A model generated the notes under the pieces. It did no database searches. It saw nothing but the letters and a program-made list of their open reading frames with translations, and had not been told where the DNA came from. The translations under genes were made by a program, and so were the position numbers. Of a stretch of DNA of 64,000 nt, positions 30,838 through 64,000 are shown in pieces. The first letter of the stretch is position 1, and each line of letters begins with the position of its first letter. This DNA comes from an uncultured bacterium (lineage in GTDB: Bacteria; Patescibacteriota; Minisyncoccia; Phycocordibacterales; UBA9973). Location: positions 18,578-82,577 of the forward strand of contig CAITGV010000001.1 of the NCBI GenBank assembly GCA_903892035.1. Reading direction: 5' to 3'.

Positions 30838-31406
30838 CACGAATCCTAATATTACTAAAAGGGGTGGACTATATCATATCCATGTTTTTACTTTCATAAA
30901 AATTTAGGACCAAGGCGCTTCCCGCTCTCTATAACTAGAGAGAAGTACTCCCCGAAGGGATAGTCTCTACACCTGCCCGCCGACCTAGGTCGGAGGGATT
31001 GGCTCGGGATTGTCCTTTTTACTGACTAAGGATTTCCCCGAATTCACCTTGTTTTTCATCCTTGCTTTCGCAAAGGAAGCTGCGTAATGCCCGCTTCGAC
31101 TTCTCTGTGACAGTTTGCACAAAGTAATACACATTTATCAAGTTCTGCTTTTACTCTCTCCCAACTTCGCGTGTATCCCTTCGCGCCAATCCCAAATTTT
31201 TTATTTAAAGGATTAACATGATGAAATTCAAGCGCATCTGTGCAACGAGAATAATGACAAATTTCGCAATTGCCACCGAGATAATTTAAAGACAATTCTT
31301 TAATCTTTTTTCGGCGTTTTACAACTGCTTTGATAAGTGTATCGCGACGCATAGCATAAGTTCGTTTCTCTGGCATAAGTTTATTATACCAAATGAAACT
31401 GGACCA
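30838..31406 (-). mobile_element. group I-like self-splicing intron in the tRNA-Asn anticodon loop (between positions 35 and 36), carrying an HNH endonuclease ORF
   Basis: Follows a U in the 5' exon and ends in G; R-like (AGAGACUA, ~30963-30975) and S-like (AUGAUAUAGUCC, ~30868-30880) elements can pair as P7; ORF lies in the 5' part. Confidence 0.65.
31056..31376 (-). CDS. HNH homing endonuclease (intron-encoded)
   Basis: CEICHYSRC...EFHHVNPLN...LLCANCHREVE, a complete HNH/zinc-finger motif set; 106 aa. Confidence 0.8.
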   Translation of the reverse strand: MPEKRTYAMRRDTLIKAVVKRRKKIKELSLNYLGGNCEICHYSRCTDALEFHHVNPLNKKFGIGAKGYTRSWERVKAELDKCVLLCANCHREVEAGITQLPLRKQG

Positions 31407-47845: not shown

Positions 47846-48198
47846 CAATGCTTTGTGCCTATAAGCCGAATTCTGTTATCGATAGTCATTTATCTAGCCC
47901 CTCGATTACTCTCGGGGTCAAGCGGCACTTCCTTCGACTTCGCTCGGGACTAGTCCTGAACTTGTTGAAGGACACGGCCTTGCATTCACGTAAGGATTTA
48001 GCCGTTTCATTCTGATATTTCTATCAGCCTATCCCTTACGGGACCCTAGCCTTTCGGCATCGGCGTTTCTGCTCGCACCTCTATGATTGCTCACGACGGG
48101 CGTTACCCGCTACGCTTTCCCTCGATTACTCTCGGGATAAATGTTCGGACTTTCCTCCCTACAGCCAAAGCCATAGAGTAACTATCCAGCACAAAGCA
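47846..48198 (-). ncRNA. rnpB: RNase P RNA (bacterial type A-like)
   Basis: Minus-strand GGGAGGAAAGUCCGAACA (P4 5' strand) and ACAGAAUUCGGCUUAUAG (P4 3' strand); P1 GCUUUGUGC/GCACAAAGC closes the molecule; -10 TATAAT lies 7 nt upstream; terminator-like hairpin at 47805-47835. Confidence 0.85.
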
Positions 48199-48281: not shown

Positions 48282-48310
48282 TTGACAAAAGCTATTCAAT
48301 TTGCTATAAT
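48282..48310 (+). promoter_or_regulatory. consensus sigma70 promoter (TTGACA-17-TATAAT) for the 726-aa surface protein gene
   Basis: TTGACA at 48282-48287, 17-nt spacer, TATAAT at 48305-48310, ~40 nt before ATG 48353. Confidence 0.55.
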
Positions 48311-52504: not shown

Positions 52505-54120
<1,616 letters not shown>

Positions 54121-54292
54121 AAATTGTTATAAATAACAATAGTTTGTGAGAACGGAACAAAATAAAAAGTATAATTTTTATGTGCTCACATTTTTAGGAA
54201 ATAGCTCTTAATTATATAGAAACTTGCATCTAATTATGTCTTGTATTCACTATTCCGTTGTAAAAGAAAGCGCCTAAAAAAGACGCTTAACT

Positions 54293-61728: not shown

Positions 61729-63087
61729 TTATTCTGGTGCCGCTTCTAATTTGAGCGTCACTGTTTTTTCTACACCTTTTGAAAGTACCTTGAGAGTCAC
61801 ACTGTCACCAACTTTATATCCGCGAATAAGAGTTGCAAAATTTGTCGTGTCATCGAGTTTTGTTCCATTCAATTCTAGAATAATATCATTTTCAACAATA
61901 CCAGCTTTGTCTGCAGGTGAACCAGGTATTACAGCGAGGTCGGTATCTGCAGTACCGCGACGAACCAAAACTCCATAATCAACAGACAAATTATTTTTAT
62001 CTTTCAATGCCTGATCGACTTGTGCATAACGAATTCCTACATATGGTCGGACAATTTTTCCTGTATTTTCAACAGAATCAACCACCCCACGCACACTATT
62101 TATCGGAAGTGCAAAACCAATACTTTGAGAACCTTGCGCCACTGCGACATTGACTCCCACGACTTCACCATTGAGATTTAGAAGTGGACCACCAGAGTTT
62201 CCAGGGTTGATTGCAGCATCGGTCTGGATGACGTGATCAAGCGCTTCAGACTGGCCTGTAGCACTGTCACCGGCCGTCACAGAGCGAGAAAGACCAGAAA
62301 TGACTCCAACTGACACAGAATTTTTAAATTGCCCTAAAGCGTTTCCAATAGCAATTACGCTTTGACCCAAATCAAGGTTGTCAGAATTTCCAAGAGAAAG
62401 ATGAGGATAATTATAACCATCAATTTTTATCACCGCTATATCGAGCACACTGTCGCGCGCAACTACTTTTGCTGTATGTTTTTTGCCGTCATTTGTATAC
62501 ACTGTGTATTCTGCAGTTTTATCTTCCACAACGTGGCGGTTTGTAACTATCATTCCATCTGCTGTAACCAGAAATCCTGACCCTCCACCTACTTCTTTTT
62601 TCTCAGTACCATTTTGTTGATATTGAGGAGTATTGAACATAAATCCAGGAAATGGATTTTGTCCACCAAACATATCGCCAAAAGGATTTGTATTTGGATC
62701 TGTTGGATTATTTATAATTTCATATTTTGGAACATTTTTTGAAATAATTATTGAAACAACAGCTGGATTTGCTTTCTTTACAGCATTAACCACAAAAGAA
62801 TCTTCGGACAAAAGTGGCATTGGAATATTTGTAGAAATTTTTCCATCACTTCCAATTTGAGGAATTGGATTGTTTACTTGGTCTTGAACTTGTTTTACAT
62901 ACTTTGTAGCAAAAGAATTATAAATTGATCCACGATAATGCCAAACTACTAAAAATGCTATACCCAAAATAACAACAGAAGAAATAATACCTGCAATAAT
63001 CCCCTGCCCAATATTTTTATTGAATTTTATATTGGTCTTTGTGCCCTCTATTTTCCTATATAGATATTTGAAATAATTGTCTTCCAT
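61729..63087 (-). CDS. htrA: HtrA/DegP-family serine protease with PDZ domain
   Basis: N-terminal anchor; TNRHVV (His), D, GNSGGPLLN (Ser); C-terminal PDZ. Confidence 0.85.
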   Translation of the reverse strand: MEDNYFKYLYRKIEGTKTNIKFNKNIGQGIIAGIISSVVILGIAFLVVWHYRGSIYNSFATKYVKQVQDQVNNPIPQIGSDGKISTNIPMPLLSEDSFVVNAVKKANPAVVSIIISKNVPKYEIINNPTDPNTNPFGDMFGGQNPFPGFMFNTPQYQQNGTEKKEVGGGSGFLVTADGMIVTNRHVVEDKTAEYTVYTNDGKKHTAKVVARDSVLDIAVIKIDGYNYPHLSLGNSDNLDLGQSVIAIGNALGQFKNSVSVGVISGLSRSVTAGDSATGQSEALDHVIQTDAAINPGNSGGPLLNLNGEVVGVNVAVAQGSQSIGFALPINSVRGVVDSVENTGKIVRPYVGIRYAQVDQALKDKNNLSVDYGVLVRRGTADTDLAVIPGSPADKAGIVENDIILELNGTKLDDTTNFATLIRGYKVGDSVTLKVLSKGVEKTVTLKLEAAPE

Positions 63088-63218
63088 AATATATAAAATT
63101 AATAATTAATAATACGCACCCTGTATTCACAATGGTGCATATACAATTGTAGTCAAAATAAAAAACCGGTCAAGCCAAAAAGGTCGATGCTGACCAACCT
63201 GAGCCAGAACCTTTCACT

Positions 63219-63241
63219 GCCTTGCCCCGCAAGGCTTTTTT
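63219..63241 (+). terminator. + strand hairpin terminator (GCCTTG-CCCG-CAAGGC then TTTTTT) with no + strand gene upstream
   Basis: Flanked by 11-13-nt direct repeats (G)ACCAACCTGAGC at 63194-63204 and 63268-63278. Confidence 0.45.
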
Positions 63242-63305
63242 AATTGATTTTTCGTTTGCCCTACGACCCAACCTGAGCGCTATATTTTACAAGGAAATGA
63301 GACAA

Positions 63306-63348
63306 AGTGAGACACGAAAAGGCTACTCTGGGACTGTCTCACTTTTTT
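63306..63348 (+). terminator. + strand hairpin terminator (AGTGAGACA...TGTCTCACT then TTTTTT)
   Basis: 9-bp perfect stem and T6; second + oriented terminator in a row ahead of the GC-rich segment. Confidence 0.5.
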
Positions 63349-63356
63349 GGCTATCC

Positions 63357-63384
63357 TTGACATATACCATATATTATGTATAAT
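63357..63384 (+). promoter_or_regulatory. consensus sigma70 promoter (TTGACA-16-TATAAT) driving the GC-rich ORF
   Basis: TTGACA 63357-63362, TATAAT 63379-63384. Confidence 0.5.
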
Positions 63385-63494
63385 ATACACCGTTCATAGA
63401 ACTATAGCGAGAATGGAGAAATTCGCGGAAAGCCATCAAGGAAACAATTGATCTCGGTCGCACTGACGTACAGGGCACAAACGCACATTTAAAA

Positions 63495-64000
63495 ATGAAA
63501 AGCGTTAAACTAACACTCACAAAGCTTGGCATCGCCGCTTGTGAAAGAATGTTCAAAGCAGGCATCGAAACGATTGACCTGCCTGGAATCGGAGAAATGA
63601 AGGTGGTGACGATCCTCACTCACGAGGACGAATCCATTGACATCATGAAGCTCGAAGAAGAGCTACACCCCACCAGTTCCCACGGCTGGATAAAACAGTG
63701 CATTATGTGGGGAGTGAAGCTCGGGCAAGAGATTCTGCCCGAATCAAACGCGGGAGAGAACATCATGAGCCTCATCGTTCGCACGCTCATTGCGCTCCGC
63801 ACCGAGCATGTGCCGTGCAACTTCATCCTCATGCGTTCGCATGTCCGCGACGAAGGTGCAGTACAGCATCGCAGTGATTGTTACTACAACTATCACATCG
63901 CCCAGCCACAGCAGGAGATGATTGCGACAGCCGTTGCAAACGCCAAACTTGCAGGGCTACACCCCGACCACGCGCTCGCACTGATACCTGGCGCACTAAG
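63495..64000 (+). CDS. hypothetical protein encoded in ~50% GC DNA (partial, runs off window end)
   Basis: Open frame from ATG 63495 (MKSVKLTLTKLGIAACERMFKAGIETIDLPG...) to the window end; base composition unlike the rest of the window; no recognised domain. Confidence 0.4.
   Translation, partial: MKSVKLTLTKLGIAACERMFKAGIETIDLPGIGEMKVVTILTHEDESIDIMKLEEELHPTSSHGWIKQCIMWGVKLGQEILPESNAGENIMSLIVRTLIALRTEHVPCNFILMRSHVRDEGAVQHRSDCYYNYHIAQPQQEMIATAVANAKLAGLHPDHALALIPGAL

Follow-up and report, generated by a model that had tools for sequence, protein, structure and literature searches.

What produces the abrupt change of base composition at the end of this stretch of DNA? In the window (the whole 64,000 nt analysed here), positions 63400-64000 contain 51.6% G+C as compared to 36.1% in the full window (600-nt windows across it: mean 0.360, sd 0.038), and the only other stretch near 50% G+C is the 16S rRNA gene. 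The initial annotation had described a switch to ~50% G+C near 63400 from a background of ~33%, of which the first figure holds and the second is too low, and had suggested that the switch marks the edge of a horizontally acquired island. Our results support this suggestion. We consider it likely that positions 63188-64000 are the left end and the first cargo gene of a horizontally acquired 16.2-kb element, residing in a Paceibacterota (CPR) genome and inserted by its serine recombinase LSR2; this grading applies to the explanation as a whole, its observed and its inferred parts taken together.

The element beyond the composition switch

The independently assembled Logan contig L001 matches the window at 100% identity along 3,568 nt and reaches past the window end; L233 is the same Logan contig (overlap with L001 100% over 4,981 nt). 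In the extended window coordinates the element spans 63188 to ~79402. The downstream DNA had been proposed as the place to look for an integrase and to follow the G+C profile, and it encodes two serine recombinases, LSR1 and LSR2, with host DNA directly beyond LSR2 back down to 34-39% G+C. The integration point lies between the promoter of an HtrA-like protease gene on one side and the 3' side of a 207-aa membrane-protein gene on the other. Insertion beside a host gene is an ordinary kind of event, and the element family itself seems undescribed: a literature search for described CPR elements of this kind, incomplete in its coverage, returned nothing directly relevant, which is a weak sign of novelty.

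The element is set apart from its host in codon usage and composition. GC3 of the first cargo ORF is 0.62, as compared to 0.20-0.31 in six adjacent host genes; most element genes have values of 0.55-0.63, and a pair coding for a 245-aa membrane protein and a KAP NTPase is intermediate (0.37-0.42). Inside the element G+C dips to 36-42%, and these dips cover mobile cargo common to related elements and contain no core genes, rather than forming the return to ~33% G+C with ordinary core genes that the initial annotation had named as the mark of a native gene.

The gene order starts with orphan cargo ORFs of 169, 182 and 280 aa, followed by Smr and a DnaA-ATPase-like protein; next come ParB_N-HTH, LSR1, the 245-aa membrane protein with the KAP NTPase (matching PifA, QatA and PDC-S20 in PADLOC), a 225-aa ORF and a ParB-methylase, and then the small and large terminase, a 254-aa protein, a 146-aa ORF and, at the far edge, LSR2. 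The first of these ORFs, annotated earlier as a + strand frame open to the window end and lacking a recognisable domain, indeed has no family match in Pfam or PHROG, and no structural match. PHROG and Pfam matches among the element ORFs are limited to terminase, methylase, ParB and recombinase. The large terminase subunit matches phrog_38 at 2e-78 and the small one weakly, and the 251-aa counterpart of the 254-aa protein in a related element (L139) has sub-threshold HNH matches. Scans of all element ORFs with the same two collections found no AlpA or primase and no capsid, portal or tail genes, and the element is therefore not a complete temperate prophage.

Shared end points and a conserved terminal block

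The same family recurs in unrelated flanks elsewhere, with both end points identical. In all relatives, homology starts at TGCTGACC (63188) and finishes within the last LSR2 codons, each end being found in four flank contexts. Relatives are 72-87% identical in nucleotide sequence over the shared segments, and their flanks are unrelated; the flank on the HtrA side of the window element (~30% G+C) likewise has no similarity to those of related elements. L139 aligns collinearly with the window element along 11.3 kb (to L233 position 11296) at 85% nucleotide identity, with flanking helicases only 25% identical in protein sequence. We considered the large helicase beside the right end as a part of the element and rejected it, as its identity from locus to locus is only 25-36% and nucleotide homology ends before reaching it.

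Recombinase genes 87-92% identical to LSR1 were found in one Paceibacterota MAG and one Saccharibacteria MAG. Element G+C is 44-49% across hosts of 36%, 47% and 54% G+C, and the sizes of relatives are 11.7 and 13.5 kb. Shared-segment identities of 72-87%, taken with host core genes that are far more diverged (the nearest relative of the host HtrA is 66-70% identical), imply recent transfer.

The left end itself consists of a terminal block that holds repeats and hairpins (Table 1). This block is ~77% identical to positions 5669-5823 of L008, is also present in L221 (8824-8985) and L220 (26-187), and occurs in a diverged form in L230. It matches no Rfam family; the only hit, tpke11, is at chance level (E = 0.57, below the gathering score) and lies within the first cargo ORF.

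Table 1. Features at the left end of the element and in the adjoining host DNA, in window coordinates
Feature	Position	Strand	Remarks
HtrA-like protease gene	61729-63087	-	housekeeping gene adjoining the element
Host-side flank	63088-63187	-	upstream region of the HtrA-like protease gene
Promoter-like site TTGACC-16-TACAAT	63173-63146	-	in the upstream region of the HtrA-like gene
Left junction TGCT	63188-63191	+	homology to related elements begins exactly here
Conserved terminal block, 157 nt	63188-63345	+	non-coding when integrated; holds terminators and repeats
Direct repeat copy 1, CCAACCTGAGC	63194-63204	+	6 nt inside the element end
Hairpin 1, GCCTTGC-CCC-GCAAGGC + T6	63219-63241	+	intrinsic-terminator-like
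Direct repeat copy 2, CCAACCTGAGC	63268-63278	+	74 nt from copy 1
Direct heptamers TGAGACA (63298-63304) and GTGAGACA (63307-63314)	63298-63314	+	read off the sequence
Hairpin 2 + T6	63304-63348	+	intrinsic-terminator-like; 11-bp stem, 20-nt loop
Promoter TTGACA-16-TATAAT, sigma-70-type consensus	63357-63384	+	in the variable cargo part, just past the conserved block
First cargo ORF, 169 aa, orphan	63495-64000	+	ATG at 63495; stop at 64002-64004 in the extended contig

The direct repeat had been annotated as 13 nt long; it is exact over 11 nt, and the longer form needs a 1-nt indel. These two copies are the sole exact ones in the window, and the spacing between them is identical in L008. Both copies change in concert between elements (A to C in L221, CCTGAG to TTAGAG in L230), making them a candidate recombinase- or ParB-binding site. 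The heptamers are invariant in the window, L008 and L221, and both copies read GTGACA in L230. IMG/VR contains no copy of a 20-mer taken from the block terminus, and the gapped pattern CAACCTGAGC-N50-80-CAACCTGAGC gave more than 120 matches in the viral collection, which are tandem repeats unrelated to the element. Scanning the same collection with GAGACAAAGTGAGACAC retrieved one contig with an array of GTGAGACA repeats, whose relation to the element is unclear.

Both tandem, + oriented hairpin-plus-T structures of the initial annotation are present, and no + strand gene precedes them, the nearest gene being the HtrA-like one on the - strand. In hairpin 1 (63219-63235), 5 of the 7 stem pairs are G-C, and TTTTTT comes next (-11 kcal/mol, z = -4.6). 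The 3' half, GCAAGGCTT, does not vary among 4 elements, with the hairpin kept via two different registers; the T-run follows the hairpin in 2 of the 4 elements and is missing from L008 and L220. Hairpin 2 pairs 63304-63314 with 63335-63345, again followed by six T's (-14.8 kcal/mol, z = -2.75). In L220 one of its A-U pairs is replaced by G-C, a single compensatory change (n = 4, not significant), and L230 has a different hairpin and a run of four T's at this position. A consensus terminator scan, which missed hairpin 2 because of its long loop, found 2 sites in 2 kb, so that the number of terminator-like sites is not above the chance expectation of 1.7; the terminators are credible because they are conserved in relatives. 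By structure, both hairpins are intrinsic-terminator-like.

The promoter reported just beyond the hairpins matches the consensus at 12/12 positions and is one of just two perfect matches in 64 kb; in L221 and L220 a TTGACA likewise stands shortly past the block. On the - strand, a terminator-like hairpin (63200-63181) crosses the junction and resembles B/P' dyad symmetry in the window. The other three left junctions do not have this dyad, and we attribute it to chance.

The GC(T) of 63189-63191 is found again where the element ends on the right in this genome (TTG-GCT-AAA; proposed break point ~79397-79402), and in L008 the two junctions likewise share a GC. As a microhomology, the shared GC(T) is a candidate for the crossover point. 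No one dinucleotide in a constant position can serve as the crossover in the window genome, L008 and L221 alike: GC suits the former two, and L221 requires AG or AGT. In a serine integrase, a palindromic GC core would also be unusual. Dyad symmetry in reconstructed attP, attB, attL and attR did not exceed random, with at most 7-10/14 matches as compared to a random mean of 7.8, and a comparison of the two ends gave no convincing terminal inverted or direct repeats and no flanking direct repeats. Neither attB nor attP was observed; the collections hold no HtrA relative above 70% identity, and no genome near enough to this host to reveal an empty site. A tRNA fragment in GCTCAGGTTGG was considered as the target and rejected, as ARAGORN finds no tRNA anywhere in the window.

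Two serine recombinases and the proposed course of integration

LSR1 is a serine recombinase that lacks a zinc ribbon (Pfam Resolvase and Recombinase; phrog_95 integrase, 9e-52), and its motif Y14-Y15-R16-H17-S18 is invariant in 27 homologues. Its best match in curated phage and plasmid collections covers the N-terminal two thirds and is no more than 41% identical. In LSR2 a Zn_ribbon_recom domain accompanies Resolvase and Recombinase (phrog_95, 9e-60). The two genes are 9 kb apart on the window element and adjacent in L231 and L232.

Within the element, the LSR2 gene reaches neither a stop codon nor a terminator of its own, so that in a circular form its frame would run on into the terminal block (...ISL-A-DQPEPEPF...). 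In-silico circles of the window genome, L008 and L221 enter the block in the same LSR2 frame. This frame stops at a TGA just ahead of hairpin 2 in L220 and L221, and the predicted extension ends at a stop codon in L008 as well; in the window a 1-nt indel shifts it, and reading continues through hairpin 2. The predicted extension is poorly conserved past ~16 residues. Among 16 close LSR2 variants in the databases, nine different C-termini follow the conserved ...ISL(A)(K), and none of the 16 has the extension.

We propose that the element entered the host genome as a circle, by site-specific recombination that LSR2 carried out, possibly with LSR1 taking part, at GC(T) or directly beside it. The circular joint is predicted to read ...ACGATTTCATTGGCTGACCAACCTGAGCCAGAACC..., the empty site ...CCAAAAAGGTCGATGCTAAAAACTCAAGTTAGTC... 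and the circular-form LSR2 C-terminus ...ISLADQPEPEPF. The two "orphan" + oriented terminators probably belong to LSR2; integration would leave them at the opposite end of the element, where they would block read-in from host DNA. Their earlier description as "insulator-like" is thus fair for the integrated state, to which our proposal adds a more specific origin. The co-varying 10-mers, and probably the GAGACA heptamers, may bind an element protein (recombinase or ParB-HTH), and the consensus promoter past the block may drive the orphan cargo ORF.

Several other explanations bear on the same observations. An assembly chimera of two organisms at ~63400 would account for an abrupt G+C change at one contig position, and the initial annotation had raised this concern. 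It is in practice ruled out: the Logan assembly matches the junction base for base, contigs of 57 kb and 488 kb in ENA/NCBI carry both HtrA and the window genome's LSR2 (all these assemblies may share reads), and G+C is back to host values past LSR2 on the same contig. We find it very unlikely that the 157-nt block codes for a small regulatory RNA whose 3' end is set by one of the terminators. The two stable + strand hairpins with T-runs, the compensatory change in hairpin 2 and the conservation of the sequence in four elements would fit such an RNA; however, the block has no conserved promoter within or upstream of it and begins at the junction itself, its overall folding is unremarkable (+ strand z = -1.5, - strand z = -1.7), covariation does not exceed that of shuffles (n = 4) and Rfam gives no match, and RNA pairing would not explain the concerted changes of the direct repeats. 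It is also unlikely, if less so, that the locus is a decayed prophage remnant or a domesticated, immobile island whose end features are relics. The terminase genes unaccompanied by capsid, portal and tail genes point in this direction, as do the frame-shifting indel in the LSR2 extension of the window, the stop codon that L008 has there, and the fact that no empty site or circular form was observed (the collections hold no close host genome). Yet the same gene set devoid of structural genes is found in at least six independent loci and hosts (L139, L008, L221, L220, L230, L231, L133) with all recombinase and terminase ORFs intact, and the recent transfer between hosts also argues against decay.

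A further reading, which we hold possible but tentative, is that the terminal block is mainly a res-like or parS-like site for maintenance or resolution in an episomal, plasmid-like stage, bound by ParB-HTH and LSR1; it would double as the operator of ParB-LSR1, as res serves as the operator of tnpR in Tn3, and its position at the element end would be secondary. In L221, L220 and L230 the block stands directly 5' of the ParB-LSR1 operon with a TTGACA promoter between them, almost every one of ~90 loci, down to 45% identity, retains the ParB-LSR1 pair, and the two pairs of direct repeats vary in concert, like co-evolving protein-binding sites. The DnaA-like gene of the element fits an episomal stage too, although the Walker A motif of its product is degenerate (GDSEATRT). 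Against this reading, L002 and L133 have no block within 10 kb although their LSR1 is 91-92% identical, and in each of four flank contexts homology breaks off at the left edge of the block, as it would not do at a purely internal site. The maintenance function is compatible with insertion by LSR2 and not exclusive of it.

Beyond the insertion itself, the data may suggest a wider picture, which we offer as a single, tentative proposal with all its parts included. The window edge would belong to an undescribed satellite-like integrative family of CPR bacteria, spanning Paceibacterota and Saccharibacteria, with its attachment site in the 3' end of LSR2. Its core would be the ParB-LSR1-LSR2 trio together with a small and a large terminase of its own, virion genes being absent, and its swappable cargo the KAP-NTPase defence-like pair, diversity-generating retroelements or restriction-modification genes. 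Integration would swap the C-terminal tail of LSR2 and part the gene from its terminators, and this tail swap would act as a built-in, integration-dependent switch of recombinase form.

CPR/Patescibacteria have tiny genomes, and their mobile elements and phage parasites are poorly known. In such a genome 16 kb make up a large share of the accessory DNA; the element described here carries defence-like cargo, and its relatives carry diversity-generating retroelements. The precise ends, the conserved block and the two recombinases together provide a concrete system for gene flow between CPR lineages, and the family offers candidate compact serine integrases whose target choice is apparently relaxed. 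If the LSR2 gene does span attP, the family would illustrate, in a simple form, how a serine-recombinase element can make control dependent on integration.

Likeness to known elements

Large serine recombinases integrate the phiC31, Bxb1, TP901-1 and A118 prophages and the Tn4451/TnpX and Tn5397/TndX transposons. The window element has in common with these a zinc-ribbon recombinase at its extreme edge, the lack of long flanking direct repeats and an identity of no more than 2-3 nt between the junctions, and its insertion sites vary as they do with TnpX and TndX. It differs in having an additional, ParB-coupled LSR1 that lacks the zinc ribbon, a recombinase ORF that crosses the joint, and no detectable quasi-palindromic att arms. 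SCCmec, which carries the ccrA/ccrB recombinase pair and inserts at the 3' end of rlmH/orfX with flanking direct repeats, is similar in combining two paralogous large serine recombinases and variable cargo on one small island. The window element, however, has neither the rlmH/orfX target nor flanking direct repeats, its LSR genes are 9 kb apart, and it adds a ParB partner, a terminase module and CPR hosts.

Phage satellites (PICI, capsid-forming PICI, P4-like, PLE) resemble it in size (12-16 kb), in the edge integrase, HTH regulator, replication-initiator-like gene and packaging genes, in the lack of virion structural genes, and in anti-phage-like cargo (the KAP NTPase). The PICI core comprises a tyrosine integrase, AlpA and a primase/Rep. 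The window element uses serine rather than tyrosine recombinases, the AlpA, primase and Rep hallmarks were not found in it, and it has both terminase subunits yet no capsid or portal; we know of no helper phage for it.

Integration alters the product of a gene that contains attP in the case of SSV1-type integrases and of the integration-dependent immunity of cluster G mycobacteriophages. The window element is alike in that the junction falls at the 3' end of an element gene, and its integrated and circular forms would differ in their C-termini; here the gene codes for a serine recombinase, only the tail would differ, and the circular-form product is a predicted one. The terminal block, finally, recalls the res site of the Tn3 family, being in L220, L221 and L230 a repeat array of 120-160 nt directly 5' of a serine recombinase operon, but its repeats are direct rather than paired inverted subsites, the operon codes for a large serine recombinase, and the array is located at the element end.

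G+C switch at the window end

The G+C content of positions 63400-64000 is 51.6%, as against 36.1% for the whole window (600-nt windows: mean 0.360, sd 0.038); elsewhere, only the 16S rRNA gene comes close to 50%. The + strand ORF starting at 63495 has a GC3 of 0.62, compared with 0.20-0.31 in six neighbouring host genes. The promoter ahead of it and one other site are the sole perfect matches in the 64 kb, and both hairpins lie on the + strand and end in T6; no + strand gene precedes them, since the left neighbour, an HtrA-like protease gene, is on the - strand. The initial annotation had proposed an island edge from this abrupt switch at ~63400, the consensus promoter and the tandem terminators without a gene ahead of them, all of which we confirm; the direct repeat said to bracket the first terminator is present in two copies, its exact length being 11 nt and not 13.

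The second perfect promoter match points away from the RNase P RNA gene, ~85 nt distant. Among the other RNA features of the window, the 16S rRNA gene is solitary, a 23S gene being absent from the 64 kb. A group I intron, scoring 65.9 bits in Rfam, adjoins a 106-aa ORF that bears HNH-like Cys/His motifs, overlapping it at the 3' end. The intron lies outside any rRNA gene, and ARAGORN found no tRNA gene there or elsewhere in the 64 kb.

Features of the window and of the element (extended coordinates carry window numbering past 64000 into recovered contig sequence)
Feature	Position	Strand	Details
Group I intron / 106-aa ORF region	30845-31096 and 31056-31376	-	
RNase P RNA	47846-48197		
Promoter TTGACA-N17-TATAAT	48282-48310	+	
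16S rRNA gene	52515-54121		1,607 nt vs 1,533-nt model
HtrA-like protease gene	61729-63087	-	
Promoter-like site of HtrA-like gene	63173-63146		
Terminal block	63188-63345		
Direct repeat CCAACCTGAGC	starts 63194 and 63268		11 nt, exact
Hairpin 1, then T6	63219-63235	+	-11 kcal/mol, z = -4.6
Hairpin 2, then T6	stem 63304-63314 / 63335-63345	+	-14.8 kcal/mol, z = -2.75
Promoter TTGACA-16-TATAAT	63357-63384		12/12 match
Gene 1, 169-aa ORF	63495-64004	+	
Genes 2-3, 182- and 280-aa ORFs			
Gene 4, Smr			
Gene 5, DnaA-ATPase-like protein	L001 6638-7141; extended 65947-66450	-	167 aa; degenerate Walker A; Pfam Bac_DnaA, 2e-22
Gene 6, ParB_N-HTH protein			
Gene 7, LSR1			462-aa serine recombinase; Resolvase and Recombinase domains, no zinc ribbon
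Gene 8, membrane protein			245 aa
Gene 9, KAP NTPase			921 aa; PADLOC matches PifA, QatA, PDC-S20
Genes 8-9, apparent operon	L233 862-4373; extended ~68968-72479		
Gene 10, 225-aa ORF			
Gene 11, ParB-methylase			
Gene 12, small-terminase-like protein			
Gene 13, large terminase			phrog_38, 2e-78
Gene 14, 254-aa protein			251-aa L139 counterpart: HNH matches sub-threshold only
Gene 15, 146-aa ORF			
Gene 16, LSR2	extended 78107-79414		435-aa serine recombinase, zinc ribbon
Helicases near right end	L233 12014-16570; L139 2-3040; L008 20702-21388		

Extent, relatives and cargo of the element

An HtrA protein look-up led to locus L001 of a Logan contig (window position = 73088 - L001 position), whose 3,568 bases of overlap match the window at 100%, and a second locus of the same contig (L233; window position = 68106 + L233 position) was reached via the cluster of the far-end recombinase. 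Combined, the two loci reveal one element, its genes 1-16 being numbered in map order. The downstream sequence, to which the initial annotation had looked for an integrase and for the G+C profile, holds two serine recombinases, the ParB-coupled LSR1 and, at the far edge, LSR2; G+C returns to 34-39% directly past LSR2, where a 207-aa membrane protein and a 1,518-aa helicase follow.

Related loci define both ends, which lie on a single contig in L008 and L221. At the left, homology begins sharply at TGCTGACC (window 63188) across four unrelated flanks, namely the HtrA promoter, a zinc-ribbon gene, an ORF beside bacA and a contig start. At the right, L139 is collinear with L233 (85% nucleotide identity over 11.3 kb, ending at L233 11296), homology among L233, L139 and L008 ceases a few bases past the LSR2 codons ...ISLAK, and the conserved reading terminates at the equivalent point in L221 (...ISLSK). 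These shared end points therefore place the element at 63188 to ~79402 (16,215 bp); related elements measure 11.7 and 13.5 kb, and element G+C is 44-49% versus 36%, 47% and 54% in the hosts. Together, such comparisons strongly support a mobile element whose ends are defined, and the initial call of an integrated-element edge was correct. A chimeric join, which that annotation had raised, is for practical purposes excluded: 57-kb and 488-kb ENA/NCBI contigs with HtrA also carry the window genome's LSR2.

The LSR1 family is large, with a ParB-HTH gene preceding LSR1 in nearly every locus. One Paceibacterota and one Saccharibacteria MAG contain genes with 87-92% identity to LSR1, whereas no relative of the host HtrA exceeds 70%. 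In two more distant relatives (L231 9154-12744 and L232 1682-5527) ParB, LSR1 and LSR2 are contiguous, in varying order, at the edge adjoining host genes, which suggests that these three genes make up the functional core. The right end lies, in three different genomes, 0-1.5 kb from a gene for a very large SF1-type helicase (AAA_11/AAA_12). Identity among these helicases is only 25-36%, and their proximity could reflect a preferred target or a shared island hotspot.

Among the cargo, the 169-aa ORF is an orphan: a search of 1.84 billion representatives gave 8 matches, and its AlphaFold model, although confident (pLDDT 84), has no structural match. The KAP NTPase and 245-aa membrane protein genes, of intermediate G+C (37-41%), are candidate anti-phage cargo; L008 lacks the KAP gene and retains the 245-aa gene. 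In the DnaA-ATPase-like protein (70% identical to its L008 counterpart) GDSEATRT replaces the DnaA Walker A GxxGxGKT, and it is therefore probably not an active ATPase. Two related elements, L221 (16486-17848) and L220 (8138-9494), carry a diversity-generating retroelement (reverse transcriptase and bAvd), with a repeated TGTTGCTAACCACGCA in L220 that resembles a template/variable repeat pair.

Terminal block and a recombinase gene probably split across the junction

The stretch flagged by the initial annotation is a terminal block conserved in L008, L221 and L220, with a diverged version in L230. Within it, the first 28 nt hardly vary. Two 10-mers, CA(A/C)CCTGAGC, lie 74 nt apart and co-vary (A to C in both copies in L221; CCTGAG to TTAGAG in both in L230), and two direct GAGACA heptamers both read GTGACA in L230. 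Because the copies change in concert, the repeats point to predicted protein-binding sites. All four close versions retain hairpin 2, and L220 has a single compensatory change there, A-U to G-C (covariation not significant at n = 4); L230 has a different hairpin at this place, followed by four T's. The block has no Rfam match, and as a whole does not fold with unusual stability. It lies directly upstream of ParB-LSR1 in L220, L221 and L230, and is separated from it by cargo genes in the window and L008; it may also serve as a res- or parS-like site for ParB-LSR1. An octamer of hairpin 2, GTGAGACA, recurs as dense direct and inverted repeats at the start of an unrelated viral contig (L132 1-200; IMG/VR 3300045988_018091), and may be a widespread operator-type motif.

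LSR2 reaches the extreme edge of the element, its last residues and stop codon being supplied by host DNA; nine different C-termini follow ...ISL(A)(K) among sixteen close variants (AKNSS in the window genome). Both junctions of the window genome hold GCT (left GAT-GCT-GACC, right TTG-GCT-AAA), and those of L008 have GC in common. If the ends were joined at GCT, the LSR2 frame of the resulting circular form would run on into the block, with the predicted reading ...ISL-A-D-Q-P-E-P-E-P-F-xxx-P-(C/R)-K-A.... This frame is identical in the window genome, L008 and L221, and in L220 and L221 it stops at a TGA directly ahead of hairpin 2; in L008 a stop codon breaks the predicted tail, and in the window a frameshift affects it. 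Such a frame would explain + oriented terminators with no + strand gene before them: they would be those of LSR2, left at the opposite end of the integrated element, where they would also block host read-in while the promoter directly past the block would drive the cargo ORF. Neither an empty site nor a circular joint was observed. Dyad symmetry of the reconstructed att sites was not above chance, and L221 cannot be fitted to one crossover register with the elements of the window genome and L008.

Comparison with known systems

We found no description of such an element family in the literature. In curated phage and plasmid collections the closest match to LSR1 is 41% identical over two thirds of its length, and the large terminase is 29% identical to its Mu-like phage counterpart. 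The integration itself is an ordinary event; moderate interest attaches to the element family and to the putatively split recombinase gene. The element would act like a large-serine-recombinase integrating element. By their defining features it falls outside three families that it resembles in part: SCC elements, in having two recombinases; phage satellites, in size, in carrying packaging but not structural genes and in its defence-like cargo; and elements with attP inside a gene (SSV1, cluster G mycobacteriophages), in the predicted position of its attP within a gene.
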